A DNA stretch of 32,384 nt from Catajapyx aquilonaris (lineage: Eukaryota). A program made the translations under genes and the position numbers. Within the stretch, counting starts at the first letter, position 1. The number at the start of each line of letters is the position of its first letter. Under the pieces are notes generated by a model. The model was not told the DNA's origin and made no database searches. It was given only the letters and a program-made list of their open reading frames with translations. This document shows, piece after piece, positions 6,083 through 31,431 of this stretch. Where the stretch lies: contig JYFJ02004408.1 of NCBI GenBank assembly GCA_000934665.2, positions 1 through 32,384 of the forward strand. Direction: 5' to 3'.

Positions 6083-6247
6083 TTCCTCCTTCCCCTTGAA
6101 GATAAGCCGTTGCAAGTCGGGCTCAATGCTCATCTTCTCGTGGCCCACGCTTCTGAAGTCCTCAATGGAGGTGCTCTTGGACAGCTTGGAGCTGCTCAGA
6201 CAGGTTTTCTTCCCATCGGCGACGGTGAGCACCTGCACGTAGAACAT
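6083..6247 (-). pseudogene. Ubiquitin-like domain fragment resembling the UHRF1-type N-terminal UBL
   Basis: MFYVQVLTVADGKKT...LSKSTSIEDFR...IEPDLQRLIFKGKE matches the UBL pattern (QVRT.DG / P..QRL.Y.GK). It stops immediately after. Confidence 0.7.
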
Positions 6248-7787
6248 AGTTGCCCTGGGCATGAGTCCCGGCTCGGCGGCTCGCCAATGGTCAGCTATGT
6301 ATAGTTTATATGAATTTCAGTGAACAAAGATGGACTGAAACGACACATTTCAAATGTATGCCTACAATATCACTGGGCCTTCGTGTCCCGTGGTCATCCG
6401 GGTAAAATAAAATAGTGTTTTCCTTACCAATTTTTGAAAAAAACACGTAATATGTGCACATAATATGCGTAACTAATATAATGTGTACGTATAGCTAATA
6501 TTTTAGAACTGTGTTATAATATGAGGTGGCATTGCGCATATGCGGAATGCGCCATTTTGTGTTCTTCCTAGAAGTAACCACTTTTCCTCGCTCCATCATC
6601 TCTTTTCTCTGGTGTTTTGTGTGGGTCGATCTGAGAAGTAGTTGAAACCAGGGGCGGCCCAGGGAGAGATGATTTATCGTGACGTTATGAAGGGTCTTAC
6701 AGTAGGCTTTGTGCCAAGTGTCCAACATACCTAAAGTGTCCAATAATCACAATGCGTCTGGTGAAAGCTTACTTTTTCTGGACTATCACGTGGTTGCCAA
6801 AGGCCGAAGTTGTCATACGTCACGTGTATCGTCTGGAGTCCTTCAGTACTATTGGAACCAGTGCCCATACGGAAGGTTTTTCTTCTGAGGAGAAACAAGT
6901 AGTGTCATAATTATTATAGACATCATGTCATGTGCTAGTAGCTCCATGATGTGGATTTCAAGTCTTGTTACATCATAACCAGTAAATTTACATGGACAAT
7001 CTTCATTGTAAAAGGGAAGAAACGAAGGAAATTACAATTCCTTATCAATACTGATACATATCTAGAATTTTAAGCACATTCTTAAAGAAAAAAATAAATA
7101 TACATATGATAGGGCTGTTCCTTGGATATCGAGGAGAAAGACCAAAGGAGACGATCTGGAGGTGTCCGAAGCAGCTTTTCTAGGTACCTTTTTCTTGGAC
7201 TTTTGAATGTAGGCCAAACAAAAAGGATATATGGTGGAGGTTTTGAAATTGTTCCGTGTTCGGCTTGATTAAGCTTTAGCGACTTGCCATAACCTCGCAC
7301 ACTTGATGAATGGCTGTTTCACACACCCGAAATGACATAGCTTACTTTGTCTTGGTCCGTGATAGTGAAACAAGATCTCTGTCGCATTTTCAAACGCGGG
7401 CTTCTCCTGAGTCAGTCCTGCGGAGTACCATGAATATCGTAGAATGTTTATACCCAGCTGCGGTGGGGAGGGAGGAATATGGGACAACGGGGAGCACGGC
7501 ACAAAGATCTCCCTCTGCCAGACATCATCATAGTCTGACATTATCTCGGTGATGTCAGGGTCCGGTGAGGTGATCATGGTCCTTCTCTTTCTTACCTCTT
7601 TTATTCGTAGGAGGGACCTCTCTGGAGTGACTTTCTCCTTGTCTCTCTTGTCCTTTTTTTTTCTTTCATGGCCAGGAGGATGGGGGTCTTGTCGAGGAGT
7701 GGGTCGAGAACCGGGTTCTTGGTTTGCTCAATTTTTTCCCCGTAAAATTAAGTCAAGGTAATGGGCAAAACTTGGCGCAAAACTCAC

Positions 7788-8272
7788 CCGGGAGTCCGAC
7801 CTCACGGGCCACTTCAGCCCAAAGTACTTGTGTGATGTTCCTGTCGCGGTGGTCCTTCATCGTCTTATCCCAGATTGCCGCCCTGTCGTGCACCGCGGTG
7901 ATCAGGGCTTCCTTCGAGGCCACCGTACTCTTCCGCGCCTCCGCCTTCGCCTTCCTCTGACTCATTTTGTACAGTAAGTTCCCGACACCAGCAAGGCGGC
8001 AACTCCAACTCAGTGGACTGCTGCCTGACCGGCACAGGTGACACCTCTCCCCGGCCTCCCCCACCCCCAGCTCCCACCCTCCCAGTCCCCCATTGGCCGC
8101 ACACGGTCACGTGGTCTCCAAGCAGTTATTCTCTTTGTAAAATAAGCGCCCAAAATTCGCTCGCGTCTTGCGGGAATTCGCCGATACGTGAATTGCTTTT
8201 GTCGACGCGAATTCGCGGAAGGCTGTTTTTCGCTCGCTTTTGACGCTTTTTCGCGCATATGTGAATCCAGCT
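7788..8272 (-). mobile_element. 5' end of a PIF/Harbinger-type element: terminus plus first exon of a MADF (Myb/SANT-like) protein (ATG 7965, donor GTGAGT at 7787)
   Basis: LITAVHDRAAIWDKTMKDHRDRNITQVLWAEVAREVG is a MADF pattern. The terminus AGCTGGATTCACAT resembles the Harbinger MITE TIR AGGCCGCTTCACA at 26696. Confidence 0.75.
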
Positions 8273-8352
8273 GTATGCATGAAACAGCACCTTTTCATAG
8301 TTTTTTTTTTTTACAGGGGACATGGTACATTTTGAGCGAAACCAAATATGAC

Positions 8353-8876
8353 CAAAGGTAGGCACAGCTAACGGAAACATCAGCTTCTCTAACAGCTGAT
8401 CAGCTAACTATAAACAATTGGATTTGCTAAATAGCTAATGCTAAATGGCGAGAAAATTAGAGCTAATGCTAACAGCTAACTTCCTTAGGACGACATGTGA
8501 TTTTAAGTTGTAAAGGCTCCCTGCCTGTCCTTTTATGATAACTTCCTTTGGCTTGCATAAGGAGCACCGAAAATTGAGAACATTGTTGTTCTTTGTGTCC
8601 CTGGAGATGAACACGAAGTACTCTGCTAGGTGAGGCCAAGGGTTGTCCACCCTGGCCACTCATAAACTGGTCAATGCATCTTTAAAAAGTAACAGACAGC
8701 GAGACAGGAACACGAATGAATCTTGTTAGCTGAATTTATTTAGCTGCAGTGCGGCACTAATTTAGTGGGAGCTAATTTGTCAGCTAGTGGCCTGACAAGT
8801 TAGAGAAAACAGCTAATCAGCTAACGAAAGGTTAGTTCAGCTGTTAGCTGATTAGAGGCGCTGATGCCCACCATTG
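8353..8876 (-). mobile_element. Complete non-autonomous hAT element (524 bp) carrying a BED zinc-finger remnant
   Basis: TIRs CAAAGGTAGGCA / CAATGGTGGGCA(rc). Perfect 8-bp TSD AATATGAC at 8345-8352 and 8877-8884. AGCTAA subterminal repeats. PWPHLAEYF...RCSLCKP...NLKSHV is a BED finger. Confidence 0.92.
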
Positions 8877-8954
8877 AATATGACAAACTATTTCAAACTT
8901 GATCAAGGAGGTGGTGGCACCATTAGTTCAATTTCGAACTGGGATGGACTTGTT

Positions 8955-9160
8955 ACGTTTTGCATGATTGCTCCTCATATGATAGTGGCAAGAATGGACT
9001 CAAAATTTGCAAGGGACCCTGCTTCGGCGTTTACCTTAGGATCTCTGGTCTCCTCTGCTACCGTAAACAGGGCTTCTCTTACTCATTTGGTACGGCAATG
9101 CTTTTACACTCTCGAGGCGGCATTCCCATCATGTGTCTGACAGTGACTTTGCAATGACAT
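8955..9160 (-). mobile_element. hAT transposase fragment (ZMYM1-like clade)
   Basis: KSLSDT*WECRLESVKAL..Q then (frameshift) VREALFTVAEETRDPKVNAEAGSLANFESIL, matching the LS.TRW..R motif. Confidence 0.75.
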
Positions 9161-9189
9161 AAGGGACGATGTTCATTCTTTCCAATGTC

Positions 9190-10381
9190 ACAGATGGTTT
9201 GTCAATACAAGTGGCAAGGTCCGAAAATTTCAGAAAGTGGTCCTGGGTCAGGATCAATACTTTTGAAGGCTTCGTGCTCTTGCAGGTCCACACAATATCA
9301 ATCCAATGATCAGGACTGTAAACATTTTGGTGATTGTGCCGCACACTGTTCTCGACTGCTGCATAGTCTTGATCAGAGGGTAACATGGTATGGCCCACGA
9401 CAGGAAACCTGTGTTTTATGCTTTTGAATCTTCCACTTGCAAGAAGACGCAACCGGAATGCAATCTTCACCCAATTTTTATTCTGTCCAGAACAGTTGTC
9501 GGATATGGCAGTCAAACTTTGGCCGCATACGTACAGGTCCTCAAAGTAACGATGCAGACAACTGTAATTTCTTCCAGTTCCACGGCCAGCCACGGTCTCA
9601 TCCCACATGGAGCAGTATCCTTGGTCCTCGCCACAGTCATGGATGTTGAAATTCAGTGTGAACATTTTTCTCTTGTAAAATGTCGGCCCTGTAGATAACG
9701 TCGGAGTGGGAAGGGCTTGTTGTAGATTAAAAGTAATCTCGGGCATGCTGCTGATGGATTCTGATGTTGTCTTGACCAGCTTCACTGCTTGCATTTTTTG
9801 TGCTTCCTTCAATCCTACCTCATTTGATCAACGCTCGCAATGTGCAATTTGAATGTGCAACCTGTCGCATTCAGCACATGTGTCAGACTTAGGTGACTGG
9901 AAAGAGATGTTATAATCTGCTGTAAAAATGCGTCGGTACTTATCGTGTGAAACCGGGGTCAAGTCCAATTCTTTGCAGTAAATCTCTTTATAGTTTTCAT
10001 AGCACTTATTGATGGAATATTCCATCGTATGTATTCTTTATCATGATTCTTTTTCCTTGGGTAATGGCTGGAGTATCTAGGGAGTTTATTAATGCGCACC
10101 CTTACATTGTCAACGTCACTTTCAACATACTTCGTCTTGTGGTGGCCATGCAGTCCACATTTGTCAGTCCCTGGTGACACTGTTGCCTCAATGCTACTGC
10201 TGCCAGTAGTTTGCACTATCTTCTGAACTAAGATATCAAGTCGCTTACGAGTGTTCTGCAGCCCATGAATGCTCAAGAATGCTTTTTTGCAGACTTTGAT
10301 TTCTGTAACTGACTGCCTGACATGATAAGCCACAGAAATTGCACGCTTGTCTGGATTACTGGATTTGTATTGTCGTTTCAC
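9190..10381 (-). mobile_element. Sola1-type DDD transposase, frameshifted (ORFs 9959-10381, 9828-10025, 9129-9812)
   Basis: VCKKAFLSIHG, SHY.R, PKSDTCAECD, LQQALPTP...FYKRK...NFNIHD, WDETVAGRG, SDNCSGQNKN, GHTMLPSD. Confidence 0.85.
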
Positions 10382-10799
10382 AGACTGTGGTCCAACGACA
10401 CCCGCAAGGTAACCATTTTGGACGACATAGTTACCAAGCTTCCAAAATTCATTACATCACGGAAATTATTGTGCACCTTCAGCTACAATACATAAGGGTC
10501 ATTGTATCGTACACAATCAATGGAGAAATCACATGCTAGGGTTACAAAAATGATCCTAACTTCGAGAATATATATCATTGCATTCTAATATGGTATGGTA
10601 CATTCGAGCAATTTCAGCTATGACACAGCAGAAGTGACACTCTTTTTTGAGGTTAGGTAGTACTATAAATGTGGAGTGACGAATCAAAACGCAAAATAGG
10701 CCTTATTTTGAAACAAGAGGACTGTAATGAGATACAGTCCGACTCACCTTCTCATAGTGGCCTATCTGTCTGCAGCGTGGTATGTAGTACTTGCATTGG

Positions 10800-10935
10800 A
10801 TTTTTCCCTGTATGGCAAAGGGAAAATAGTCAGCTCAAACAATGGGCTTCTGGGATTCAGTGACTTTTGGCCATCCACAAAATGTTCACTGCATATTACT
10901 GTGCTGTTCCCATGGCTTTCCATCTGGCCTGAAAT
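10800..10935 (-). mobile_element. THAP zinc-finger fragment (DNA transposon N-terminus)
   Basis: VICSEHFVDGQKSLNPRSP...TIFP is the C-terminal half of a THAP domain. Confidence 0.75.
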
Positions 10936-11645
10936 GTTTGCAAGATTCAAGACTATCTAGATGCTACAGATTGTACCACACCATCATTATAATTCTCGTC
11001 CACTCGACGTACCCGTCACGCCTAACGCCTCACGTACAGCCGAACTCTTCCTAGGAGCAGGCAGCCGTGACAATTGGTAGGACTTAAATGTATCCATCAT
11101 GACATGGTTCACCTTTGATTCAGGATAAGACTTGGGAAATGATTGTTGAAGTTTGGTCAGATAAAAAAAACAAAAAACAAAATGACATCATTTTTGTTAG
11201 ATCTCGGCCCAGTTGCATAGTTATTCTCAATAGGGTTCATAATTCGTAATAAGTACATCGCCGAACCTTCACTCCGCAGTCTGTTTCAATACACATGATT
11301 CACTTTCTGTTATTGTGCAAATGACCCAACACTTTCTCTGTTCCCTTTCGGCCACTGGCACACACAACTTGTTGCACTAGGTCAGTCACAATAGTTCCAC
11401 ATGCCTGCATGGCCTCACTTTCCTTTTTTCTTTTTTTTTCTTTGTTTGCAATATGGAACTCATTGCTGAATTTCTGAGCATGCATCGTATTGGGCTGGCA
11501 ATAAGACATGTCCCTGCCCCGTCCAAAGAGCTCCTCAATTGTGGCTCATGGTTTGTATCGGAACTGCAACTCTTGGCTTGTTGTAGGTTTGTGCCACTTC
11601 TGGGCTGCTGCTGTTCGTGAAACAAACCTTTCTTCAGTAATGTAA

Positions 11646-11870
11646 TGTCACATCCCGACGTCATTGACGTCCCTGGATGTCGGGCTACAATCCCTCCTGA
11701 CCTGGAGTACTCACCTACGGCCTGCAATGCAAAGGGGGGAGAGCCCCCCAAACCACAAGTGACCAGAACAAGGTTCCAACTCAAAGTGTCTTTATTCCTC
11801 TTTCCCTCACCACTCCCAGCCCAAGCGGGCTGAGGGACAATACAGTGTTGCCATGTCACGGTCTGTGACA
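11646..11870 (-). mobile_element. Solo LTR (225 bp), Gypsy-like
   Basis: Ends TGTCACA...TGTGACA, 4-bp TSD GTAA at 11642-11645 and 11871-11874, AATAAA on the minus strand at 11791-11796. Confidence 0.8.
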
Positions 11871-11999
11871 GTAAGTAAGTGTGAGTTTAAGGAAACTTAT
11901 TGAGTCAGGAGGTGAAAGTGGCAATGCTGCTGGTCTTGGTGATGCCGGTGCTGAGGATGATGTTGGGGGTGACAAGACTGATGACGACGGTGACACTGC

Positions 12000-13010
12000 C
12001 GCCTGCAATAGAAACTGTGTTACAATTTCACTTGAGGCAAGTTCACATCCTACATCTGCCCTGAAGATCCTCCACCGTGTGGCGAGAATACCAAATGCAT
12101 TTTCAACGCACCTCCTACGGAGATTGTTTATTATAGTTTAGTGCAGGCTGAATGTGTAGCATATGGTATGTTATTATGGGATTGATCACAATTTATTTCA
12201 TAAAATTCAGCAGCATAATAGACCAGAAAAATTGGCGAAGCACATGTGATATGACTGTTTGCATAGGCTTAAAGGCCTTTTTGCAAAAACTTAAAGATGT
12301 ACTTTGTGAATAGTCACGTTACTAACATGTCTCGGGTAAGGCGGTAGTTGAAACTGGCTTGCTTCTGGCTCAGCTGTTGGTCAGGGTATGCATCATCTTT
12401 GTTGTCGGTGGCCTCATCCCCAATGGGAAAAAAATGTGACCTGACATTGGTGCCTGGAAAGTGGGCTGGAGCTGGTAGGGGCACTGTATTTTGTTCTAGC
12501 TGCTGACCCAATGGGGATTCCTTGAAGACACCTTCATCGCTCTGTCTCCCGTAGGCCCCGACATCAATGGACGTGAACCGATATGAGGCTACAGCGATCA
12601 ATATGATAGAGAAGGTGCCCTATAAGTTCAGAAAAATCTTGACAAGATGTTGGGCAATAAAAAAATGCGTACACTTGCTACAAGTCCTGTTTTACAGGCC
12701 TAGCCTAATTCAGTTCATATAGCCACAAGTTTATTTCTGAGACAGATCTCAAGTCAGGCCTCGTTAGGCAATCTGGTCGCCCTATGTAAATAATTGCCGG
12801 TCAATGTCCACCAATGTTGGGCTCGGGTCTGTAATAACGATAGCTCATCTCACGGATATAATCATGATGTCAGCTACCTTGTAGTTAAAAAAGAGGGAGC
12901 CTGATTTTGGAGGCGCTTGGATCTTCACATGCTTGCCGTCTATGGCTCCAGCACAGTTTGGAAAATTCCATAGTTTCCATAACACACCGATTTAACCATC
13001 TTGCAGGTGG
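12000..13010 (-). mobile_element. PIF/Harbinger DDE transposase pseudogene with introns
   Basis: FPNCAGAIDGKHVKIQAPPKSGSLFFNYK | GT-AG intron 12877-12620 | GTFSIILIAVASYRFTSIDVGAYGRQSD...GDEA...FNYRLTR ... RRCVENAFGILATRWRIF. Confidence 0.9.
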
Positions 13011-13039
13011 CGATTGTCCTTCCGCTGGAACTTTCTGCC

Positions 13040-14030
13040 TTCAATCCCAACCACTGGTTCTCCCACTTCTGCGTGTGGTAGCGAATCGGTTGGAAACCTT
13101 GTCGTGGAGGGCCGTCATATTGCTGGTCAGTGCAATTGGGATGGAAGTTACGACCCACAAACCACAACGGGGCTGACTCCGAAGAGGAAATACTAAGTTA
13201 GTCCGATGAATAACTACTCCATGCCCCTGGAAGTAGTTGCCCAGACCAGTGTATATCCACCCCATCCGTCCGTGCACAGCATGCTGTCTGGATGGGTGTG
13301 GTCTATTAGGATGGGCCACAGAGTCTTTGTCGCGCTTGGGCACAATCATGGCGAACCTGTCGATTGTAAAAATTATAGTGAAGGTCAATGTATTACAGGG
13401 CATGTTATACACATATTAAAGTAACATGAAAAATTGAACCAACTAGGCTGTCTCCTCAAATGACTCTTCAATGTTATTTGTGGAAGAACAACTTGACGTA
13501 CCACTTGGTTGTTCTTCTGACACATTCTACAGAGGACAGCTGCATGTCTGCTTTATCGACAGGAGGCTTTCCCGCCTTGGGGATGGCGATCACCACCGCC
13601 CGACGCCATAGGGCAGGGAACTCTTGCGCAACCCAGAGGCGGTTGAAGAACGCCAGCAGCTGCCGGCGGGGGTGCTCCGACAGGTGGCGCAAGAAAGGGT
13701 AGTGGACGTCGTCGGGCCCACTGAATAAATGTGATGTATTGGTTAACAGCACCCTAATATTCTCGCCCATATCCCGCCTCTCCTTCGTGGCCCGGCTTAT
13801 GCCTCCAAGGACCCAAATTTCCGACTTGATGCCGCCTACATTGGTTTTCCTGCGGAATAGTTGTGACTCATCCACTTCCATCCCCGCCTATGCCTTCTAA
13901 ATCGTGCCACTATATAACAGTTGCAGCATCACGGAACCTTGCATTCCAATTCTCATCCGATGGTAGTCATTCCTTCATTTAATGTCTGATTTTCGGTCGA
14001 TATCGATGCCCGACATGGCTTCCTGCAAAT
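13040..14030 (-). mobile_element. Merlin/ISXO2 (IS1595-like) transposase, degenerate
   Basis: FICRKPCR...GIGG-EVDESQLFRRK...WVLGGISRATKE / RFAMIVPKRD..TLWPIL...PDSMLCTDGWGGY...HTQKWENQW, with several frameshifts. Confidence 0.85.
13545..13720 (-). mobile_element. Non-LTR retrotransposon RT fragment (I/Jockey-like), nested between the Merlin halves
   Basis: GPDDVHYPFLRHL...LLAFFNRLW...FPALWRRAVVIAIPKAGKP is the N-terminal part of a LINE RT. Confidence 0.88.
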
Positions 14031-14124
14031 GAAGCTTGTTATTTATTGTAATTTCCTATGCCCTATGTTTGGCAACGGAGACTAAGTCTGGTGCTTTTTA
14101 CTTACAAATATATCAAATACTGAC

Positions 14125-14285
14125 CACACGACAGTGTCAAAGATCCAAGCCGGCATCACTCAATTTTTGCAAAGTTCGTCGCCTAATGTACTCGCCTGTC
14201 TCTCCCTCAACCTCTACGAAGTCCTTTATTTCGATATGGCCGCCATTGACGATACTTGCCCATTCTCCAGATTGTCCGGCATGTG
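14125..14285 (-). mobile_element. hAT transposase fragment (second ZMYM1-like piece)
   Basis: IVNGGHIEIKDFVEVEGETGEYIRRRTLQKLSDAGLDL*HCR matches the TGE...L...GLDL..CRGQ motif. Confidence 0.6.
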
Positions 14286-14324
14286 CTTTAGAGTTGTATT
14301 ATGTTTAGCCAATAGTGGCCACCT

Positions 14325-14481
14325 GTCCCCTACGGATATCACGCTGCCTACGAGGAGCATTATGCGCTCCTCTTCATTAGACAGATGAGGGGCACTATGC
14401 TTTCCTTGTCCAGTTGTCGTCGGAGCCTTCAGCAGCTGCGCCTGCTTGGACGGTGCGTGGCTCTTCAAGTCATTCCAAACC
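14325..14481 (-). mobile_element. Myb/SANT-like DNA-binding exon (Harbinger accessory protein)
   Basis: After an AG acceptor: VWNDLKSHA...TTTGQGK...LSNEEERIMLLVG...VGD (W.D.K...TGGG...L..EE pattern). Confidence 0.6.
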
Positions 14482-14969
14482 TATAGTATACCTATAACAT
14501 TGATATTAGGTGATGGCATGCATGAAATCTGCACATTTCTACGTTACACGGTACATTCGCAGAGCTGGCTGAGTGTTTCCTCCGATCTCAGTAAGCTTCT
14601 TCAGACAGAGAGAGGCTACCCCCTGGAAGTTCTTGACCACACAGTCATGTCCTTCTCTGATTCCTGTGAAGAAGAGGCTTCCCTTCTCTCCACCTGAGGA
14701 GTCTGCCGTCTGGCTCCGGAAAGGCAAACAGCTGAAATGATATTGTTACCCTTTGACATAATGTGGTAATACACAACCGGGAGATAGAGTGAAAATATAG
14801 TGTTTACTTTGGCAGCAAGGCAACAAGAGTCGCCTTTACAGAATCGGCCTCTACTGCCTCAAGGGCAGGTAATCACACGGCTTATATCCCCCATCAGGCA
14901 ATGGGGGCACCCACCATGGGGCGCACAATGTCAAATGCCCAGAAAGTGAAATGCGGTGACGTCACAACA

Positions 14970-15365
14970 TCAGCACAGTAGCGAAGTGACAGTGAGAGAC
15001 ACTGGAACCTGCCTTTTCCGATCCAAACAGGATTTCTGGTTTGGGCATGTGCTCCATTGTGCCTGACAAAACAAAACAAAAAAAAACATTTTCCTTATTA
15101 TTGATGTAGGTGGCATAATGCTGCGCCTTATTTATGAGCCTGGTAATGAAAGTTAAAAAGGATCCTCATACCTTGCCGGTGGTGCAGTAGTGGGGGTTTC
15201 TCAATGGGGGTCATCATATATGCCATAGTGGCATATTGCCACCATCCCCCAATAGTATGCTTCGGTGTGGAGCAGCCTCAAGTTCTTCCTTAGCTTACTT
15301 TGGTTCCAGATACTGCTGTCATGGACACTTCCTCTCCACCGTGCCACAATTTTTGTTATCTGGCA
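14970..15365 (-). mobile_element. Second PIF/Harbinger transposase fragment (HARBI1-like clade) with intron 15171-15063
   Basis: IVARWRGSVHDSSIWNQSKL...MTP / GT-AG intron / RHNGAHAQTRN...RFQCLSLSLRY. Confidence 0.8.
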
Positions 15366-15593
15366 ATGCATTATCGATGGGTTCAACTCCAATTACTTGC
15401 ACAACAATGAGTGACCAAAATGATTCCAGCATAGCCTTTTTTACGCAGCAAATACCGATAATAAATTACTGCACAATGTATCCTGAATCTTGCATAGCCT
15501 AACATAACATGCAGGCTAAATTCTAGACACTTGCATCAGTAATGGCATTGAAACAAAACATAAAAGCTGTTCAAGTGCAAATATTAATATTTA

Positions 15594-15782
15594 TTCCCTT
15601 TTCTGTGGAGTTAGTGGCTGGCCTGCAGATGTGCTGCTGCTAGACATGGCTGTCCGGTTTATCAATTTATTGTCTCCCCACACTGACTTTGCCAGATGCT
15701 TCACATACATGCTGCCTGTTGTTCCATTTTGAATGAAACCCCACAGGTGCTTGGTTATCTGTACTCCTTCAGTTAGTGTCAC
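15594..15782 (-). pseudogene. BEN-domain fragment
   Basis: YVKHLAKSVWGDNKLINRT...PLTPQK matches the BEN pattern LA..VWG...L..RS...LTP.K. Confidence 0.6.
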
Positions 15783-15889
15783 CTAATATATTGTGGCGCA
15801 TTGCAAACTGTCTGAAGGAGATCAGGGCACAGTTGTAATGTGATTGCATACACTGCAGTCAGTACTGAAGGTATGGAATTTATATTACA

Positions 15890-16345
15890 CTTCTCGACGA
15901 GGTTCGTCATTTTAATGAGCTTTTGGCGGAAAACTCGGGCCAACAGATCATGCCGATCCTTGGAAATCTGGCCTGGGAAAAGTTCGTCAGTGACCTCTTT
16001 CCAAGTGGGATTACAGGTGAAGGTGATGAAGAGATCTGGCCTGCCATACATGCGGACGTAGCTCATGGCGTCCTGCGTTCTCTCGTGCATGTACCGAGGA
16101 CCTCCCGTGAAACTGGATGGAAGAATACAAAGCTGACCAATGACCCTGCCTCCACCCTCATCGTTGTTGATGCCGTCTCTAAGATGAATGTAGGAGTGTT
16201 CACGTAGCTCTTTCTGGTGTGTCTTAATGTAGAGGAACCTTTCTGACTCCACCTTGGCATACATGTCAACAGCATACTGATGGAAAAGATCTTGAGATCG
16301 ATGCAAATGGTTGAAATAGTCATTCCGAACCATGAATATGAATAA
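15890..16345 (-). mobile_element. Helitron Rep/helicase N-terminal fragment (Helitron_like_N)
   Basis: LFHQYAVDMYAKVESER...ILPSSFTGGPRYM...QDAMSYVRMYGRPDLFITFTCNP.W...DRHDLLARVFRQKL. Confidence 0.95.
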
Positions 16346-16349
16346 CTTC

Positions 16350-16646
16350 ATCGTGATGACATTAGGCCCCCATGTGTCTGGCATCCACTACCATCACAAA
16401 TGCAGTGAACAAAGTCCAGTTCTTGTTTTGAACGCTACAATTGTCTGTCCACAATATGTACTTGTTTGCCTGTCCAGGTGAAGGACCCTGGTAATGCTAG
16501 TTATGTTAATGTCTCACGGTAGGTATCGCCTTATAGTGTGAGACCTGAGGATTATAATTATGAACTGATGTGTTCCTTGATTTGGATCGGTTCTGCTTTC
16601 CTGGCCTGAGTCTGATGCCTTCCCTTTCCATCGATTGATTGTACTA

Positions 16647-16722
<76 letters not shown>

Positions 16723-18140: not shown

Positions 18141-18399
18141 CATCGGGTATTGACCGTGATACAACGTCACGGCTAGGATGTGGCACAGTGCTGGAACGGA
18201 GGAAGCCTGAACCACCAACTGCCACACTTCTCATGAGAACCAAATACATGATTCACTATATTGTGTGTAAGTCATATCTGTCTTGGAGTTGGTGACTTGA
18301 AAATCATCGTCACTGTCAAGCTGTTTGACTGTCAGACATTCCAAGCGGCTTTTGGCTGGGGCCTTAAGCTTTCTTCTCCTGATATCCAATTTTCTGGAT

Positions 18400-20253: not shown

Positions 20254-20254
20254 A

Positions 20255-20849: not shown

Positions 20850-21090
20850 GAATCTGACAACGAATCAAGATTTTCGGGAGGTGTTGGCATCGGAATTTCT
20901 GTTCCATGAGGCACTGGCTTTATGGCTGATGGCACTTCAGGATACTTCACATGTTGCTTGCTTTTCCTATTTATACCATCAAGATTTGTCATACAAAAAT
21001 AACAGTTTGTCACGTGATCCCTTCCTTACCTTCAAACCATTGGGACACCAAATGGAAGACACTTTTGCTTCTTGTTGCTCACCTTCAGGA
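20850..21090 (-). mobile_element. Chapaev3 (CMC) transposase fragment
   Basis: LPFGVPMV*R*GRDHVTNCYFCMTNLDG...KYPEVPSAIKPVPH...PTPP. Confidence 0.8.
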
Positions 21091-21109
21091 AATTTTCCAT
21101 TATAGTTTC

Positions 21110-21845
21110 AGCAGGGTATTTGGGTGAAGTGGCTTTTGACCTTGTTCAGCAAAATGGCTAGAATCCTTTTTAAGCCTCCTGCTCTATGCAAGTACTTGCG
21201 GCTGTACATCAACATTATCTTATCACATTCTTGCAAGAACTTCACTACATCATTGTTGGGCACAATCAAACCTCCAAACACTACTTTCTTATGGGAATAA
21301 GCCCTGTAGTGAATATACAAGTTACTGCGGTGTCCAATTCAGTGCTTGAGGACTCATCAAATTGACACGTGGTACACACATGTACCTTCTGTAGTTTTCT
21401 TAAATATGCCCCACAAATGTATAAAAACACATTATCGTCTAAGATATCACCATCAGGGAGTGATACATCATCACAACTCAAATCTTTCATCACCTTCTTC
21501 AGTAACTAGGCTACTCCCTGAGGTCGTGTAAAAATGTCACAAAATGCAGCTAGGAAGGGAACGGAGTCAGGCTTGCAGTTTCCCTGATGACCGCTGCCTA
21601 GTAGTGCATCAAAGCATAATATTTTATATGCGCCAAAGACCTGCTCTGGTGTGGGTTTTCTATTGTTGCCACACTTCTTACGAACTTCTCCAAAAAAAAC
21701 TTTCTAGTGGATCCTGATTAAACCTTTCAGTCATCAGGAATTTCAAGCCCGACTTCTTCATTTCAAATGTCAATGATGGCATTGATAGTATTATCCAGCC
21801 CTTGATGAACTTCACTCTGCTTGTCACATCAGCCTCACCCTTGCA
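21110..21845 (-). mobile_element. P-element (THAP9-like) transposase C-terminal fragment
   Basis: FIKGW...FLMTERFNQDPLE.FFGEVR..CGNNRKPTP...GNC..D...YICGAYLRK...CTTC...GGLIVP. Confidence 0.88.
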
Positions 21846-21911
21846 TATTCGCATGTTATTATTTTTTTAAATAAAAAAAGATGACCATGTCCTTCGAGTA
21901 TGAAATATGCT

Positions 21912-22412
21912 CACTGTTAATAAAATTGGCACCAAATCTGGTGCCAAATGCTGTCTCCCCAGCGGCACCCTTTATTTGTGCCAACGGGCACCAAAATTTG
22001 GTGGTCTAGTGGTTAGCCCCTGACCAGCCAAGCGGGAGGCCGGGGGTTCAAATCCCGTCCCCGTCACCTCTGCTTGGCCGGGTCTTTTTCCGTTTTTCAC
22101 CCGACATGCCGGAGCAGAACTCCCTTCTCTGCTCGGGGCCAGGAGAAAATGCCTGGTGCCTTTTCTGAGTCAGAAATGACTATAATTACAGCGCCCTCCC
22201 TTGGGAACCTCCCCTCGCCCCCTAAAAGGGCTCCGCCCTATCACGGGGGTTTCAAAAAAAAAACAAAAACTGGCACCAAAATCAGTTGGTGCCACCTGGC
22301 ACATTTGCAGATAGGTGACAATCGTCACCAGTTGGTGCCAGTTTTTGCACCAGCATTGCTACCAACTGGAACCAATTGGAAACTGGTGCCAAGTTGTGTC
22401 CTGATGGTGCCA
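21912..22412. mobile_element. DNA-transposon end with GGCACCAA/TGGTGCCA subterminal repeats (EnSpm/CACTA-like), interrupted by a SINE
   Basis: Starts CACTGTTAA; many direct and inverted copies of the motif on both sides of the SINE. Confidence 0.45.
21998..22270 (+). mobile_element. tRNA-derived SINE
   Basis: A box TGGTCTAGTGG, B box GGTTCAAATCC, unique body and A-rich tail (22254-22269). Flanked by GGCACCAAAAT at 21987 and 22272 (possible TSD). Confidence 0.8.
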
Positions 22413-22639
22413 CATGATAGCAGCATGAGTGAAAGACTCTGAAAGGCAAGGATGTCACAGAAGGAGACTGTTTACCAAGACAAAATATAGGTACATTTAC
22501 ACCACTTATAACGTTTATTCATGAAGTGTAGTTTAGAAACCATGATTTGCCAAAGGGCCCAAGTCCGTGGAAGAAAATTTTTCAGGAGACAAAAAAAAAC
22601 CTCAAATTCCTGTATGGCTAGTACAATGCTGCCAATAAC

Positions 22640-23573
22640 CAGTGGTGGGCACAGTTAACCGTTAATCAAGTAACTAAAAAGTAATGGAAGTTAACGTTAA
22701 CAACTAAAGTTAACTTTTATTTTATGAATTTAACCTTTTTTTATCTAGGGCCCTTTAAAAAATAAAAACAGACCTAGAGTGCTAAAGAGTGCTAAAGTTA
22801 ACTAGAGAGCACTGCTACAACATACGCCTAATTCAGTTACGCTATTACCTGTTCCATACAAAAAGTATTAAACAAAATAATTCAAACACCAAAAAAGTTT
22901 ATTGGTTAGCATTAGCATACATGACTCCATCATTCATTTATTAACCAATGATGATGGTTTCCCCTCATAAAAACCAATCTTTCAAAAGTTGTGTCCGAGA
23001 GCGTGGCTCTTTTGGGCTTGAGGATGTCTTTTCCCATTGAGAACAATCTCTCGACAGCAGCACTCGATGGGATTGTGGTGTTACACTGGATAAAAAGGTC
23101 AATTAAAACTTTCTGCCCCAAGAATGCGTCATCTGTTAACACCCCCTTCGATCCAGCCTCGACCCACATCCTCACAAGGTTCTGTGCCTCTGCCTTCACC
23201 AATCTGTGCCTGTTTGAGATCTTCGACTTGGTGAATCGGCTGAATAAGTCGTCCTCTTCAGCCGATTCGCTGTTGCTGGTGGTGCTCTCACCATCACTGG
23301 TGCAAGCCGTCTGCATCATACCACCCTCTGTGACCATACCTTTTTGGCCATTTCCATCCTTCAGACCTTGAACTCCCCTACCACAAAACCTTATCCCTGC
23401 CTGGAGCAGAAATGTCAAGGAAACAATGCAACTCAAAAAAGAAGAGAGCGAGACAGGAACAGGATTGAATTTTGTTAACGGACTTACATTTAACGGAGCT
23501 AAACTTACAGCTAGTGGAAGTTAATTGGTCCATTAACGGTTTGAAAGTTAACGAAACCGTTAATCAATTAACC
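22640..23573 (-). mobile_element. Internally deleted hAT element with C-terminal dimerisation domain (ORF 22930-23436)
   Basis: TIR CAGTGGTGGGCAC at 22640; GTTAAC subterminal repeats at both ends; LFIQCNTTIPSSAAVERLFS...KRATLSDTTFERLVFM. The other TIR is missing. Confidence 0.9.
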
Positions 23574-23589
23574 TACAATTTTTCTTTGA

Positions 23590-25130
23590 AGGGGTACCAA
23601 AATCACAATCACGCGAAGACGCACTTTTTCCCGCTTTTTCCATTGCTTTCAATGATGATATCTCGGGAACTGTTCTGAGAACCAACATGAAATTTTAAAC
23701 TCATGCTTTTGGAATAGCACACTGTCATTTAATGCATAAATTTACTTTATTTAATGGTACAGTCACCTGCAAAAAAAATCACCAATCTTGCATATTTTGG
23801 TCAAAATGCGCATATTTCGCAATTTATTACGCCGTTATGGTAAACGTGACGGTTGTGCTGATTATATTTTGTGATATACTCGGTGACCCCCTCCAGGCTA
23901 TGAAATAATAAAACCTTCGTTAGCTCCGCGTGTAGTTGAGATATGCGAGGTGAAAATATGGCAACAAGCGAAACATGCATATTTCAAAAATTATTTTCTC
24001 AAAAACCCCATTTTTTATTTTTTATTTTACAAGGACGGACCTGTTATAAAATTAACTGGTGTCAAAACCCGGTATATGTTTTTTATACGTGAGATACAAA
24101 TTTTTGTAAAGTCACAATTTTCGTAATTGTGCTACAATATGCAAAATGCACAATTCAAATAAATATTTTTTCGAAGAAGCAATTTTAAATATTTTGATTT
24201 TATTTTTTACTTTACAAAGACGGACACGCTATAAAATTAAGTACTGTCAAAACCCGGTATATATTTCTTATACGTGAGATATAAATTTTTGTAAAGTGAC
24301 AACTTTGTGCTACAATATGCACACTTAAAATAAATATTTTCTCGAAGAAGCCATTTTGAAAATTTAATCGTTATTTTTTGTATAACAAAATAGCATGAGT
24401 TCGATTATAATATTATATCAAAATTTGGTATATATTCGTATTCAGTGAGATACGATTTTTTTCACGGGGGTGATTTTTGTTTCTATGCAACAACATGCAC
24501 ATTTCAAAAATTAATATATGGAAAACGCCATTTTTAATATGCAATATTCTTTTATATTTCATAAAGGAAAGGCCGGTTGTGTCATAAAATAATATAAAAA
24601 CCTGGTATAGATTCTTGATGATGCAAATTTATGAAAAGTGGTATTTTTGCTTTCGTTTAGTGTCTTTCAACATCCTTGCAGTTACTTCTAAAGTCATATT
24701 CGACATAAAAAATAAATGTCAACAACTAATCTGGCAACCTTTCATAATGGTCAACAGAGGCCAAGGGGGAATTAAATGTAAAATGGATCCACTTTCGTGA
24801 CCGTCTTCATGAACTATGGAATGCATGAAATTATACATCTTCATAAAACATCGTGAAACCCTCCCCACTTTTGTATCAGACTATGCATGCATGCATTTCA
24901 AGAGAAAGATAATCTTACAAAGGATCAGTGATAGTCATCTGCTTCTCGACTTCCATGGCCTCCCTGCAGCTCTCATTCGCAACAGCCACAATTCCAGCAC
25001 GTACATCACTCTCAGCCTTTTGTAAAGTATGTGCAGAAACTTCAGGCATGTTGAGGGCCGTGAGCACGGTATTCAGTTGGGCTGCCCCAATACCAGCGTC
25101 TATCATGGCTGAAAGAATAGTAACTATAAT
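23590..25130 (-). mobile_element. Kolobok-type ('Mutator-like') element: terminus, long subterminal region and transposase fragment (24915-25110)
   Basis: Terminus (TTGA)AGGGGTACC; AMIDAGIGAAQLNTVLTALNMP...LQKAESDV..GI..VANESCREA...EKQ. Linkage of the terminus to the coding piece is inferred. Confidence 0.65.
23975..24630 (+). repeat. Four diverged ~170-bp AT-rich tandem units
   Basis: Units begin ATGCA(C/T)A near 23975, 24146, 24317 and 24495. Units 1-2 share GTCAAAACCCGGTATAT and TATACGTGAGATA. Confidence 0.85.
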
Positions 25131-25254
25131 GTTCAATTTGCTTGGAAATTTCACAACATGCAGTATGCCGGTATAAAGTAGAGTCGACAACAATTTGCAT
25201 ATGCAGCTTTAAGTGACAGTGCAATGAAAGCATGCATGCTACACTTTTGAGCAT

Positions 25255-25680
25255 TGTGGCTGCACTAGGCTCGAATAAGCAGGAGACACAATAAAAGACG
25301 TCTGTATTCTCCGATCAGGCAGCCATTACTCCCCTTTCTTTATTCTCTCGTTCAAGTCCCCCCCCCCCCCNGTTAGGTGGCAGGAGCGGCTAGCTGCCGC
25401 TACACTCCCCCACCCTTATTCATTTACTACACTGAACAAAATAGCGTACATGGTACATCCACTGAATATCATGAAATCACACTCAGTTCAATCCTTAAAT
25501 GTTCCGTGCACAATGATGAGGGCGTATCCACCACACTACGACCACACCTGCTCGACCAGGTCTGGGTGAAATCGGACCCTCTTCTTGGTTGGACTGGTCA
25601 TCACATAGTCTCGCAGGTACCCAGGGGGTTGTCGACGGCGACAACCCCGTCTTTGCACCGCCTCTGGCCCCTAGTTCACG
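25255..25680 (-). mobile_element. Gypsy 3' end: integrase tail, PPT and 3' LTR (25404-25255)
   Basis: PGYLRDYV...KKRVRF; PPT AAGGGTGGGGGAG (25417-25405) abuts TGTAGC...AATAAA...GCCACA. An N lies at 25371. Confidence 0.75.
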
Positions 25681-25749
25681 AAAACTTCACTCTCTGTCAG
25701 AATCTTCACAATCGAATGTTGGTGTTCCCGTTCGGACATGGGGAGTAAG

Positions 25750-26125
25750 GAAATCAGTTAAACTCTCTAAATTGGCATGAAAGTCTTTGTTGGGCGGAAG
25801 GTATATTAGGCCCATAAGAATCTTTATGCCTTTCAGCTCTATGGTAACAAACATGTAGTGATACATGAGTAATAACTATTCTAGGTAGCAGGCGAGTGTT
25901 CACGATCAAAATGAGCCCCCCCCCCCCCTAGGGGCAGCCGGAACTAATAGGTTTCGTTGCAAGTAGTACTTGAAAAATCACAATGTTCGTGGCTTTGGTT
26001 AGGGAAAAATGAGTCGTGTGCCACGTTTCTACAAAGCCCCAGCTTAAAGCGCCCGGGAAGGTGTCCTTGCATTCAGAATTTGCTTCGGCTGCTGATTTAC
26101 CAGCGAAGTTCCAGGAAATAAGTCC
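25750..26125 (-). mobile_element. LINE APE endonuclease fragment (start of ORF2)
   Basis: LISWNFAG...FVETWH...RGGG...LMGLIYLPP, with frameshifts. Confidence 0.75.
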
Positions 26126-26519: not shown

Positions 26520-27250
26520 GCTACGCTGGCCAAGCACGTGGTCCACAACTGGCATTGGGTGTAACTCCCGTTGTACAGCTCTATTTAGCTGTGCCACATC
26601 CACACAAATCATCACGTCCGTGACGTTCCCATTCGGTTTGGGCACAACCACCATCGCTGAGCACCATTTCGAAGGTTCCAGGACTTTTTGTATACAGGCC
26701 GCTTCACAAACTCGACGTTGCGCAAGCGGGGGGTGTGGGCCTTCCGCTCATCACACGCAGAAAGTCCACCCGGTTGGAAGCCAGCGCAACGCCCGCGCTC
26801 GGTCATCGCAAATTTTCCGCGTTCCGCACGCCCCGCTCGCGCAAATCCGAGTTTGTGAAGCGGCCTTAACTCCCTTCTTCTCCAAGTCATCCAGAGCTGC
26901 GCGCGTTTTTTTCCATCAAAGGTAACGGTACTCGTCTGGGAGCGGATAAAGCAACAGGTGGTATGGCAGGATTAAGGGAAATACGGTGTGGGGCTCCTTT
27001 AAGGAGTCCTAAGCCTTGGAAAAGCAATGGGAAATCTTTCATCGGGTCTAAGAGAGTGGTAACCGGATTTGGTATGATCTGTCAAATGGTACGGAGTGCT
27101 CCCTAGGCCTCTATTGCCGGTCTTCCCAAGAGAGCCTTGGAAAGATCCTTCAGGATTATGATAGTTTGTCTTACTTCATGATCCTCATACTTGAGAAGGG
27201 GCTCTATTTGGCCACAGAGGCATAATGGTTTTGCATCAGGGTCATAATTA
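26520..27250 (-). mobile_element. Gypsy pol fragment (protease end and RT start)
   Basis: ALLGRPAIEA...FPLLFQGLGLL...PRRVPLPLMEK..LDDLEKKGV[MITE]IQKVLEPSKWCSAMVVVPKPNG...CVD..QLNRAVQRELHPMP. Confidence 0.9.
26696..26866. mobile_element. Harbinger/Tourist-like MITE (171 bp) inserted in the Gypsy RT
   Basis: Perfect 19-bp TIRs AGGCCGCTTCACAAACTCG; 3-bp TSD TAC/TAA (1 mismatch). Removal restores the RT frame. Confidence 0.92.
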
Positions 27251-27653
27251 TACCTTCGTCATCGGTGGGCTCATCTTGATGTGGGGTAACGTCTTGCGAT
27301 GCACCACTTAACTTTGCTCGTTTTAGTGAGCCGGTCGTGGAGGAGCCACCGAAATAGCAGCCTCAAAATCTCCCATCCTGACAACTTGCCTTGTTCTAAT
27401 ATTGTGTTCTTCCATGGGTGGAGGCGTAATCTGTCGTGGTACTGCCCTCGAAAACCTATACAAATATTGCAATACTAGTGGACCCGTAGCCAAAATTTGG
27501 CAAAACATAATACTATCAGGATGACAATGGGAATGAAAACATGTGGCAAATACTCATTTTATTTCAAACATTTTTTCAATGTTGCAACAATTGGGATATT
27601 GCGGGATATGGGGAAACTGGAGGTTGGGGGCCCCAGTAACATGTCAGAAGTAA

Positions 27654-28475
27654 TTACATACGGGAATCGTACCTGAAATTTGTGGCAAAACCAATACTAT
27701 CTCTAATTTCAAAATTCATGTCAAATTTTTGTAATACATTTATCAAATCATCACGTTCATTATTATTTCTTGTCATAAATTGCTTGTTGCTTTTTAAAGA
27801 CACAAACTGTAAATACTTACTACTTGAACCCAAAGTAACAGGAATTACATCTTTTGTTAAGTTGTTGTCAGTTAGCATTAGTGTGTGCAGATTGTCAAAT
27901 TTCATTTATTTTAAAATTTTGGTGCAAAAAAAGGAAAAACCAGAAAATAGGTTCATTTCGACTATCTTCAAGTGATTGCTAGTCGAGATTTGTGTAAGAT
28001 ATCTCAATGGCATAGGATAACATTTTTTATAATGAAATTTTTCTATATGTTGAAATGCACAGGGACTTAGAGACAGATTATATCTTATGCACTGATTTGA
28101 AGCGATATCTAGTGACTTTAGATTTGGCATAATCTTCTCTATAGCTGGCAAGTTCAACCCCATGCATAGAGATACTCCAGTTTAGGGAAGGGAATATTTG
28201 TTTCCTTTCCGAAAATTGAATTGAGCTCATACATCTGAAAGAGTTAACCTCGTAATATGCCTCAAGCAGTTATCCAAAAGACAGTGCAGGTTAGTTGCTG
28301 ATCCTCCTACAAAATGCAATCTTTTCAGATTAGTCAATCTGTTTAAATCACTTAGATCTACTCCACCACTCAAGCCTACGTCAATCTGATCCAAGTTTGG
28401 GAAATAGGTAGCCACTTTGACGGTAACGGCCATGTAGCGTGAGAGGGCAAAAGGGGAAGAGCCCAAAGATGACAC
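27654..28475 (-). pseudogene. Intronless AT-rich leucine-rich-repeat pseudogene (F-box/LRR-like)
   Basis: Three same-frame ORFs split by stops, with LRR units FPNLDQIDV, LTNLKRLHF, MPNLKSLDI, FDNLHTLML, LQFVSL. Confidence 0.7.
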
Positions 28476-29832
28476 GTGGGTTAAAGTTCAAGTCCTCCAA
28501 TGTATTTGTGACCTTTTTGGGTACACAATAAATATTCGTGGGGTTCAGTCAGACAGTGTTTATTTGCCAGTTAAAGGGATTGGAATAACGAGTGGGTGCG
28601 AACGCCCACCCGGACTGATCAGAACAATCCCCAGCAAGGGGAAGGCCCGAGACAGCCTCGATACAAAGGTGCGAGCGGTTTAAATAGGTTGTAGTTCTGG
28701 ATGGTGCATGATGGGGTTTCTTAGTCGCTACTGATTCGACGTCAGATGAGGAAACTACTAGGTGGGGAATTGGGTATACATGCTTTACAGAGAAATGGGG
28801 CAGAGTATATATTTCCCGTTTTGGGCCCCATATTGGCCCATCCATTTCCCTCCATGGGAAATTTAGTTTAAGAACCACTCTCTTGGTATGACTAATATTA
28901 TGAACTGACCTATCGTAAAACAAATTTGAAGCAGTCTATCCTCTACAATTCTGAAGCTGTATCTTGTGTGAATTCCATAATGATTAGTATGATACTGCTC
29001 GCTATTCCTGACTACACTACTCTGACGTATGTGATATTTTAAATAAATGTAAAACTCGCCACTCCGATATACGTATAGTACTTACCAAACTCTTCATCTG
29101 TGATTCTGAAGCACATGCAATGTAATCCTCAATGGCCTCGCAGTCGTTCTTGCTGCTGATGATAACGAATGTGCGAAGGCTAAGTGTCGCTGTGTCTTCT
29201 CACCAGTTTTGCCACTACTCTCGCGTGCCAACCACGACGGATACCACACCCCTTCTGTCGCAGAACGCCTAATGTCAAGGCATACCAAGTAAAATATCAA
29301 AGCTTGGAATCTTCTGGGCTCCGTAAAGGCCTTGTCTGCCGATTGGGACCTTGTTGTGGTTTGTGGCCTTGCTATTTCCGAAACATTTTGTCGCGGTCTT
29401 GTAGTCTTAATCCTTTTGTCTCCCGCTTGCCCCCCCCCCCCCCTCGCCGCCGAAATAGATTCGATCATGATTATAACTTTGAGACACAAAATTTAGGCCT
29501 TCCTGATCGACCGAGCCTTACCGAAGCATGTTTATCGTATTCCGCACACGTCAAAGCGCCAGCATAATGATTCTTACAGTAGTATATTCAGAATATTCGG
29601 AGTAATATAGGTTTTCCCTAACCTCTGTCACCTGTGTAAAAACTTGAGACACACATTATCTAACGCATTTATTGAGATATTTAATTTGTGGCTTTGGGTT
29701 CATGTTCCATTAATCATCTATTTTGAGCGTTTTCAAAAACTTTTGATTACTGCAATTCATGGCAGAGCTACAGCTGTTTTAGGTGATTGAAAGCAGCCAG
29801 CTCTGAGTTCATGCCGAATATTCCTGGTCGCG

Positions 29833-31431
29833 GTGAGAAGTGCCGAAAAAATGCCACTCAGCAGGAATTCCAAAATCTTGCCTGTGACTGAGGAGATTCT
29901 TGAAGCTGAAGCAATTTTTAAAATGCTGCACTGCTCCGTCTGTGAAGTACACGATCATCTTCGGCTGATGGCACTTCTTCTTCAAGTGATTGATGATTAT
30001 CCGTTGAAACACATGCACTGCTGTTGTGTCATGTTTCCTATTGTCGGAAATAATGACCTGAGAGCCGTGCTTCACTTCCTCCTCCACTTTGAAGTAATAC
30101 ACAACGGTGAAGAGCGTGCATTGGTCATTGTTCCAGCGGAATCCTTGAACAGCATCCTGCGCCACAAACGAGTAATTTTCCGCGAAGTCGCATTGTACAA
30201 GGATTTCCCCAACCACCAGAGTGTTCTTCCGCTGATCGAGGTAACCCGACTGCTGACGTGCAATAAATGCATGTGTCTTCAAGCGAAAAACTTTCTCGCT
30301 GAGCTCCTCTGCAAAATCATCCGTGGATGACACCACCATCTTCAGAGAAGCCCTATCTGTTTCCGTCCATAGCTGGTACTGGATGTTGTCAATATCATTG
30401 TCCACGAACAAGTCTTGAAGGTAGCACTGAAGATTCTCAGGTCCTGGACAAGCATCGCACTCGCTGAGATGACAGGCTGTTGTCGGAGAGTCGCACATGA
30501 TCATCTCGATGCACTGCTGGTATGTCTGAAGTGGCTGTCCAGAATCCTGCGTCAATTTGGGGACGTTGGCAGCTTGCATCATCAGTTGCACGTTCTCGTG
30601 GTGGACACACACGCATACACAGTGGGTACCACTGGCACCCGCCAAAACGCAATGCTTTGGTCGAAGGGCTGCGAAAGAGGAAAAGCCAACCAGCGCGTCC
30701 GAGTGCTCTTGCTTGAAAAGAGCGTACAGCTCCTTCAGGTTACTATACAGCAGCCTCTTCTGCACATGCAATCGCGTACCATCTGGACCCTTCACCGAGA
30801 CGAAATCTTTAGCGCCAGCCATCAACTTGCCATTCTCCTCCCTCTCATAAAAGGATCGGACAGCTTCGGCGGTCTCTTAAGGCAACTTCTTTCCCGCTTT
30901 TGGATTTGGAGACGCCAAAATTCCATACTCCGCTACAAGTTCCTTGGCCTTACGCACCCTTCGCCGAGAAGTTGAAAAAAACAATGCCGTCTTCTTTACA
31001 CCCCAGCTTTGTGGAGCAAGAGTCAGAATTGTCACTTTCTCCGAAGTTGTCGTCGACGGCTTCTTGAACCTCTCCTGAAGTTGAAGCAGAACTTCCAAAC
31101 CTGCTTCTGTCATCTCCTTTTGCTGCTGGTCTGCGCTGAGCCCCACATGCTGCTCAACGGTTTTTCTCTTCTTCTGAGGCGGAGGGTGATAAGATGAGCT
31201 ACTGCTCTGGCTGCCCGAGGGGGTACCGTCGTCTGATGGAAGCAAAAGTGATGATGTCGCAATATTGCTGATTTTGAGTCGGCAACCGATGCACACCTTC
31301 CAGCCTGCTTTCAATGTCGGCATTTTCTTCATCATTGCCGGAGTGACGCCTTTCAACTGGTGCATCTTCAGGTGCTTCTTGATTCTGAATGGATTGCAAC
31401 AGCGGTCGCGCCAGGTCATCTTGTCCGCCAT
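29833..31431 (-). mobile_element. Sola2-type transposase, one premature stop (30877-30879) and 3' truncated
   Basis: CCNPF..., QKRLL..NLKELY..FK, F.ALRPKHC...THCVCVCVHHEN, DFAENY, SDNRKHD, TDGA..HFKN, WHFFGTSH. Breaks off before the expected GKG..DG third Asp. Confidence 0.85.

Follow-up and report, generated by a model that had tools for sequence, protein, structure and literature searches.

The window analysed here comprises 32,384 bases of Catajapyx aquilonaris contig JYFJ02004408.1, with a single N at position 25371. Within it lies an array (6083-31431) of short, decayed coding remnants from unrelated transposon families, with about 6 kb of flank on its left and about 1 kb on its right. 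A sequence-only reading of this DNA had proposed the array as a candidate uni-strand source locus of PIWI-interacting RNAs (piRNAs). Our analysis confirmed the observation on which this proposal was built, namely that the recognisable coding remnants share a minus-strand orientation.

Orientation was assessed with a strand-symmetric Pfam scan of every stop-to-stop open reading frame (ORF) of at least 40 residues in the window, in total 450 ORFs (222 plus, 228 minus). At an expectation value (E) of 1e-3 or lower, where about 0.45 chance matches are expected over the 450 ORFs, nine minus-strand ORFs and no plus-strand ORF were matched, and all nine lie inside 6083-31431. Five of these nine also pass Pfam’s own cut-off (MADF, DUF7869, the first DDE_Tnp_4, Helitron_like_N and Mutator). 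At E<=0.01, with about 4.5 chance matches expected, 14 minus-strand and 2 plus-strand ORFs were matched in the whole window, and 12 versus 1 inside the array. ORFs of 40-59 residues added nothing credible on either strand in Pfam, and with Rfam nothing in the window reached the gathering thresholds.

Two further minus-strand pieces were recovered by homology search, the Cc8L18.2-like and the PIN/NYN-like ones. The large homology searches were run with minus-strand ORFs only, leaving the Pfam scan as the sole strand-symmetric test, so that these two pieces extend the list of remnants and not the symmetric test. The 11 supported remnants of unrelated families give the array a transposon-fragment density sustained over tens of kb, its extent being limited by the window. 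The number of independent supported units is 10 or 11, depending on whether the MADF and Tc5_C pieces are counted as one, and the two-sided probability of chance co-orientation is therefore 2 x 0.5^10 to 0.5^11, i.e. about 0.001-0.002. The sequence-only reading had counted about 29 fragments, at least 25 of them independent, with a chance value of 6e-8; these figures have to be reduced accordingly. Its statement that every recognisable fragment lies on the minus strand holds for the Pfam-supported remnants (nine against none) and is not strictly true of the array as a whole, because a short interspersed nuclear element (SINE)-like insertion at about 21998-22271 lies on the plus strand. Comparable numbers of plus-strand transposon fragments, which the same reading had named as a result that would contradict it, were not found by the strand-blind Pfam scan.

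Base composition extends this picture. Composition was counted in 500-nucleotide bins, of which 50 fall in the array and 12 in the left flank. On the plus strand, T is more frequent than A in 40 of the 50 array bins (binomial p 2.4e-5), compared to 5 of the 12 flank bins, and the same strand is deficient in purines in 38 of 50 array bins versus 3 of 12. The sense strands of coding sequence tend to be purine- and A-rich. Altogether this indicates that the entire 25 kb behaves as minus-sense, beyond the pieces that were matched in databases. In the 3-6 kb region of the left flank it is the plus strand that is rich in purines, which is the reverse of the array.

With regard to content, the claim that DNA transposons dominate could be upheld. 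The supported pieces include two DDE_Tnp_4 fragments, which we take to be of the Harbinger/PIF-type superfamily, together with Mutator, hAT, P-type, Helitron, DUF7869 and Cc8L18.2-like remnants. As these superfamilies and the PIN/NYN-like piece are unrelated, they are not parts of one element. Other assignments of the earlier reading could not be confirmed: the long interspersed nuclear element (LINE), Gypsy and DEDDh pieces are motif-level only, and no Pfam family matched them at E<=0.1, not even after X had been put at the stops to read through them (a procedure also applied to the leucine-rich-repeat stretch). Likewise, none of the 450 ORFs matched a reverse transcriptase (RVT), integrase (rve), protease or env family at E<=0.01. 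Two orientable long terminal repeats (LTRs) had been described, and the search for direct repeats in the window gave no pair of LTR size. All features are collected in Table 1.

Table 1. Coding remnants and repeats of the array, by position in the window; cut-off refers to Pfam’s own threshold.
Feature	Position	Strand	Evidence
Array overall: coding remnants, short and decayed, from unrelated transposon families	6083-31431	minus-sense	
Ubiquitin-like domain, partial	6083-6316	minus	Pfam ubiquitin, E 2.3e-4, profile 6-47/72, below cut-off
Transp_Tc5_C (Tc5/pogo-type transposase C-terminal domain)	7272-7727	minus	E 7.9e-4, below cut-off
MADF_DNA_bdg, half domain	7756-8106	minus	E 1.7e-6, profile 1-47/84, above cut-off
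DUF7869 fragment (transposase-associated)	9132-9827	minus	E 7.1e-8, profile 62-138/192
DDE transposase fragment 1	12317-12619	minus	DDE_Tnp_4, E 1.8e-6, profile 33-115/158
LINE reverse-transcriptase-like stretch, motif-level	13477-13887	minus	seen in translation only
DDE transposase fragment 2	15204-15392	minus	DDE_Tnp_4, E 2.1e-4, profile 40-70/158, below cut-off
Helitron Rep-domain fragment	15782-16387	minus	Helitron_like_N, E 5.1e-39, profile 7-163/191
PIN/NYN-like domain, ~90 residues	18785-19063	minus	382 relatives (E<=1e-3; lowest E 1.8e-17)
P-element/THAP9-type transposase RNase H C-terminal piece	21509-21703	minus	TNP-like_RNaseH_C, E 5.6e-4, profile 10-35/35, below cut-off
SINE-like insertion	~21998-22271	plus	tRNA-type A/B-box head, A-rich tail
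hAT-like remnant, C-terminal dimerisation domain	22657-23541	minus	Dimer_Tnp_hAT (22933-23520), E 0.0032
AT-rich non-coding repeat, 185-nucleotide tandem unit	23575-24760	not determinable	tandem repeat 24013-24365
Mutator-like (MULE) transposase fragment	24918-25208	minus	Pfam Mutator, E 5.6e-13, profile 74-139/357
Gypsy protease/reverse-transcriptase-like stretch, motif-level	26560-27300	minus	no Pfam family at E<=0.1
Leucine-rich-repeat-like stretch	27900-28487	minus	LRR_4, E 0.0058
Cc8L18.2-like multicopy insect family piece	29833-31422	minus	339 relatives (E<=1e-3; lowest E 4e-118, at 52% identity)

Several of the pieces could be described further. The ubiquitin-like fragment at the left end matched the ubiquitin-like domain of UHRF1 among PDB sequences (E 2e-4), and a transposon origin is not obvious for it. 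The neighbouring Tc5_C and MADF pieces are possibly a single element. For the DUF7869 piece no relative was found in the PDB. The two DDE_Tnp_4 pieces overlap in their profile positions and are thus separate copies. In the case of the Helitron piece, no helicase part was found after the Rep domain, and what is left is an internal fragment of about 600 nucleotides. The hAT-like remnant is bounded by inverted subterminal arms (22657-22677 and 23521-23541, 76% complementary), and a related stretch of 43 nucleotides is found in the same direction at 8694-8736 (direct repeat D5, 84%).

The two pieces found by homology differ in preservation. The Cc8L18.2-like piece, a name taken from one source, is the least decayed, the only long (1.6 kb) and the rightmost one. 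It contains the longest ORF (29812-30876, minus), which continues in frame to 31638 past one stop. When 40 of the 120 listed Cc8L18.2-type proteins were compared with the window by tblastn, matches were obtained only at 29833-31422 on the minus strand; they cover residues 2-491 of a 616-residue relative, implying that the gene has lost its 3' end. The PIN/NYN-like domain was found by exhaustive search and corresponds to the last 90 residues of the minus-strand ORF 18794-19507. In its relatives, which are uncharacterised proteins of 1000-1500 residues, it is located near the C-terminus, at about residues 1150-1250. Tblastn of 150 such relatives against the window gave matches only at 18600-19063, again on the minus strand. 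A word-indexed search of longer proteins with the ORF gave no relatives, and no relative was found in the PDB. Ten of the relatives from the exhaustive search were submitted to Pfam; one showed a weak NYN_YacP match, and the other nine were without any family. The domain may belong to an undescribed transposon-encoded protein family.

Other candidates were tried and set aside. In the range of E between 1e-3 and 1e-2, the plus-strand PQ-loop match inside the array (16 residues, E 0.0025) was read as noise, and the minus-strand matches to Vir1p, NSP13_ZBD, DUF4231 and GRIP as well as the plus-strand match to DUF4379 (31746-31970) look like noise. Of the 224 ORFs with 60 residues or more, the 95 in 6083-19734, from both strands, were additionally submitted to a relaxed Pfam scan (E<=1). 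It gave weak minus-strand matches to THAP (10765-10956, upstream of the DUF7869 piece, E 0.11) and to the piggyBac-type DDE_Tnp_1_7 (E 0.16), and a plus-strand SWIM match (E 0.011) that is an antisense shadow of the DUF7869 ORF.

Simple repeats are also present in the array. A perfect (ATT)24 microsatellite at 16651-16722 encodes 24 asparagines within a 187-residue minus-strand ORF. Poly-C tracts of 13-14 bases lie on the plus strand at 25358-25370, 25916-25928 and 29430-29443, and two of them are preceded by similar sequences of 14-15 nucleotides (repeat family D3). The sole N of the window follows directly after the first of these tracts.

The SINE-like insertion is an exception to the common orientation. 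It was recognised by its tRNA-type head, for which we assumed the A-box and B-box consensus, and it is flanked by an 11-bp direct repeat (GGCACCAAAAT, at 21987 and 22272). It is located in the loop of a palindromic element (arms 21977-21994 and 22286-22303) that resembles a miniature inverted-repeat transposable element. No tRNA was found in it by ARAGORN, nor by Rfam at E<=1. We read it as a probable young SINE of a very abundant family, inserted in the plus orientation.

The sequencing runs listed as containing the stretch comprised four DNA runs of one sample and one run of unknown type; none was recorded as RNA, which speaks neither for nor against expression. To describe copy number and assembly integrity, Logan contigs from three DNA runs of one sample were placed on 6083-26082, and the contig depth of run X1 was summed in 30 bins, with a baseline of about 30. 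At the SINE-like insertion the depth reaches about 52,000 (some 1,700-fold), and at the AT-rich repeat of 23575-24760 it is 7,000-16,000 or 240-500 times baseline; depth summed over contigs does not strictly give copy number, but contrasts of 100- to 500-fold are hard to read otherwise. The contigs of run X5 (12 records) match only the high-copy repeats. As a whole, 17 of the 30 bins, covering most of the array, have a depth of 21-58, seven have 62-157, and six have 266-16,411 (8084-9417, 21424-22757 and 23425-24758). The Helitron piece falls in the intermediate group at 4-5 times baseline, and the stretch 8084-9417 lies at 9-20 times baseline. This suggests that most of the array is single-copy. 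Consequently, near-identical genomic copies seem to be lacking for most of the fragments, and few well-matched piRNA targets would exist today.

The left end behaves differently. In 6083-8083 the depth is about twice the baseline and a second contig series differs at about 1% of positions. Since each of the two series has about full single-copy depth, this end is probably duplicated elsewhere rather than heterozygous.

Contigs without gaps or differing letters cover 8800-10888, 10872-11675, 11753-13028, 13266-15400, 16731-17883, 17857-18898 and 19035-21722. These error-free contigs span several junctions between unrelated pieces, and the array is not obviously a misassembly. The DNA runs may be the source of the assembly itself, so that this support is not independent.

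The left flank was inspected for signals of transcription. At about 3844-4103 (about 3818-4110 with its signals) the plus strand has an exon-like unit, preceded by a polypyrimidine tract and AG and followed by GTGAGC; the unit has no open frame, no Pfam match and no relative. A TATATA sequence is found on the plus strand at 5664, about 400 nucleotides before the array. Both are leads and nothing beyond that. No upstream gene was recognised by Pfam, ORF or homology analysis in the 6 kb to the left of the array. The same flank also contains a foldback at 863-1294, with inverted arms of 157 nucleotides that are 87% complementary and 118 nucleotides apart.

The state of the pieces gives some insight on how the array was made. 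They are short internal parts of long genes, e.g. 90 of 1000-1500 residues in the PIN/NYN-like piece and profile positions 74-139 of 357 in the Mutator piece, which fits old insertions that eroded in place. Stops are found throughout the fragments, and only one ORF exceeds 260 residues. The window repeat search detected no repeated spacer or junction motif common to the pieces, and there is no systematic pattern of poly(A) at their ends. The hAT-like remnant has kept its inverted subterminal repeats, as expected for insertion at the DNA level. Altogether, the array looks like the product of ordinary insertion followed by erosion, rather than of templated copying. A directional writing process, in which pieces of transposon mRNA (e.g. 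products of piRNA-guided slicing) would be reverse-copied into the locus in a fixed orientation, would explain the short internal coding parts, the one-way layout of unrelated cut-and-paste families and the one or two pieces per family. It would amount to a eukaryotic, CRISPR-like memory templated by RNA. The lack of poly(A) at the ends and of a junction motif, together with the retained hAT inverted repeats, argues against it, and we consider both the process and such a memory very improbable.

For the array as a whole, the reading that fits best, and to which we give about even chances, is a uni-strand piRNA source locus, i.e. a transposon trap built by trapping and orientation filtering. 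In such a locus, the plus strand would be transcribed by RNA polymerase II into one long precursor, either from a promoter located to the left of about 6 kb or because transcription of an upstream gene reads through. The precursor would carry antisense copies of at least 10 transposon families and would be cut into phased, 1U-biased piRNAs, which would direct PIWI proteins to those transposon messages that they match. Elements would insert in either direction and the one-way layout would arise after insertion, by selection: insertions giving the precursor transposon sense signals or useless sense piRNAs would be lost, and antisense insertions would be retained and then erode to short pieces. 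The co-orientation of heavily decayed and mostly single-copy pieces is what was observed, and so is a diversity of families with little redundancy. Having only one or two pieces per family is what a trap may be expected to show, as a family would become silenced once captured.

Several observations weigh against this reading. The statistically supported pieces number 10-11 and not 25-29. The youngest orientable insertion, the SINE-like one, sits on the plus strand. With 17 of the 30 bins of 6083-26082 at baseline depth (21-58), there seem to be few near-identical targets; together with this youngest insertion, the baseline depth counts against a currently active broad-spectrum defence. Plus-strand AATAAA motifs are not depleted beyond base composition (17 on the plus versus 31 on the minus strand, with an expected ratio of about 0.65). 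Regarding content, the DNA transposons and the absence of any Gypsy remnant in the Pfam scan mean that the array is not like the flamenco (flam) type of cluster. Finally, the plus direction of the presumed precursor would follow solely from the rule that known clusters carry their transposons antisense.

An ordinary long plus-strand transcription unit without any piRNA role (a very large intron, a long non-coding RNA or a region of read-through) could produce a comparable layout; we regard this as unlikely. The visible flank is only 6 kb plus 1 kb and no exon was recognised there, so that a host gene may exceed the window, and the exon-like unit at about 3844-4103 would agree with such a gene. 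This unit, however, has no open frame or relative. Moreover, the bias in the array is 9-11 against none and concerns mostly DNA transposons, whereas orientation bias in introns is moderate and weakest for cut-and-paste elements. The filter that such a unit would need, by which insertions with sense polyadenylation or splice signals are purged and antisense remnants are left, also has points against it: purging applies to whole elements with 3' signals, and the AATAAA counts show no depletion on the plus strand beyond composition. It is quite improbable, too, that the array is a fossil graveyard, in which the shared orientation is genuine but a matter of the past, the locus has fallen silent and only extinct families are matched. 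Such a graveyard may have originated from a former cluster or from a few block events. The 17 baseline bins and the unique contigs without variant letters agree with it, as do the heavy decay, with stops throughout and one ORF above 260 residues, and the recent high-copy insertions at 21.4-24.8 kb, which break the orientation rule where they can be read. On the other hand, at least nine different families cannot arrive as one block unless they were nested beforehand, genomic relatives persist at several-fold depth (the Helitron piece and 8084-9417), and a silent locus gives the bias no reason to arise.

The remaining explanations have far less weight. Gene-capturing Helitrons carry their fragments in one orientation, and a Helitron Rep fragment does lie inside the array; a composite mobile element with fragments captured one way (Helitron- or Pack-type), or a giant retroelement transcribed as a single unit, would thus account for the layout. 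Most of the array is at baseline contig depth and is therefore not a multicopy element, the Helitron piece is itself an internal fragment lacking the helicase part, the array is not flanked by a pair of direct or inverted repeats, and no look-alike stretch was found among the other DNA windows compared. Hence, we hold a composite element to be highly improbable. An assembly artefact stringing repeat fragments together is hardly credible: the N at 25371 beside a poly-C tract and the splitting of the repeats at 21.4-24.8 kb into many short contigs would be in line with it, but the seven contig spans without differing letters or gaps cross several fragment junctions, albeit in one sample that is maybe the source of the assembly.

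In conclusion, the array can be considered a reasonable candidate for a known kind of locus. If small RNAs confirm the piRNA reading, strand filtering could act on a whole spectrum of cut-and-paste elements in another arthropod lineage, where for the flam-like clusters of Drosophila only Gypsy elements have been reported, and such loci could become predictable from sequence alone. As most of the families seem to be without near-identical copies, the archive may be a record of invasions in the past and not a guard against those of today.

Comparison to known piRNA clusters shows which features are shared. Drosophila flamenco and the flam-like clusters are likewise loci of tens of kb or more that hold transposon fragments with a clear strand bias, and they are thought to act as a trap, producing a long precursor antisense to the captured elements (PMC10643416). 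According to the same study, their bias is driven solely by Gypsy elements, and these clusters span 227-1,085 kb (PMC10643416). In contrast, DNA transposons dominate the array described here, in which no Gypsy remnant is statistically supported, and its length is at least 25 kb, as limited by the window. Expression has been shown for flam, while the present array is known from its DNA sequence alone.

Outside Drosophila, two mosquito examples are comparable. Cluster 38 of Aedes aegypti, a unidirectional flamenco-like cluster, has its elements on the same coding strand; a single long antisense transcript is described for it, along with primary piRNAs that are phased (PMC7161354). It consists of transposon-virus hybrids in a 143-kb region, whereas our array is made of short DNA-transposon remnants without a confirmed viral piece; transcription and piRNAs were measured in the mosquito, and our array was read at the DNA level. 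The core clusters of mosquitoes are also uni-strand, with captured sequences, viral remnants among them, that are mostly antisense, and they are described as driven by read-through from upstream genes (10.1101/2022.08.22.504762). For the array, no upstream gene was recognised in the 6 kb to its left. Nevertheless, read-through of this kind offers a possible route to transcription of the array, for which it would need no promoter itself.

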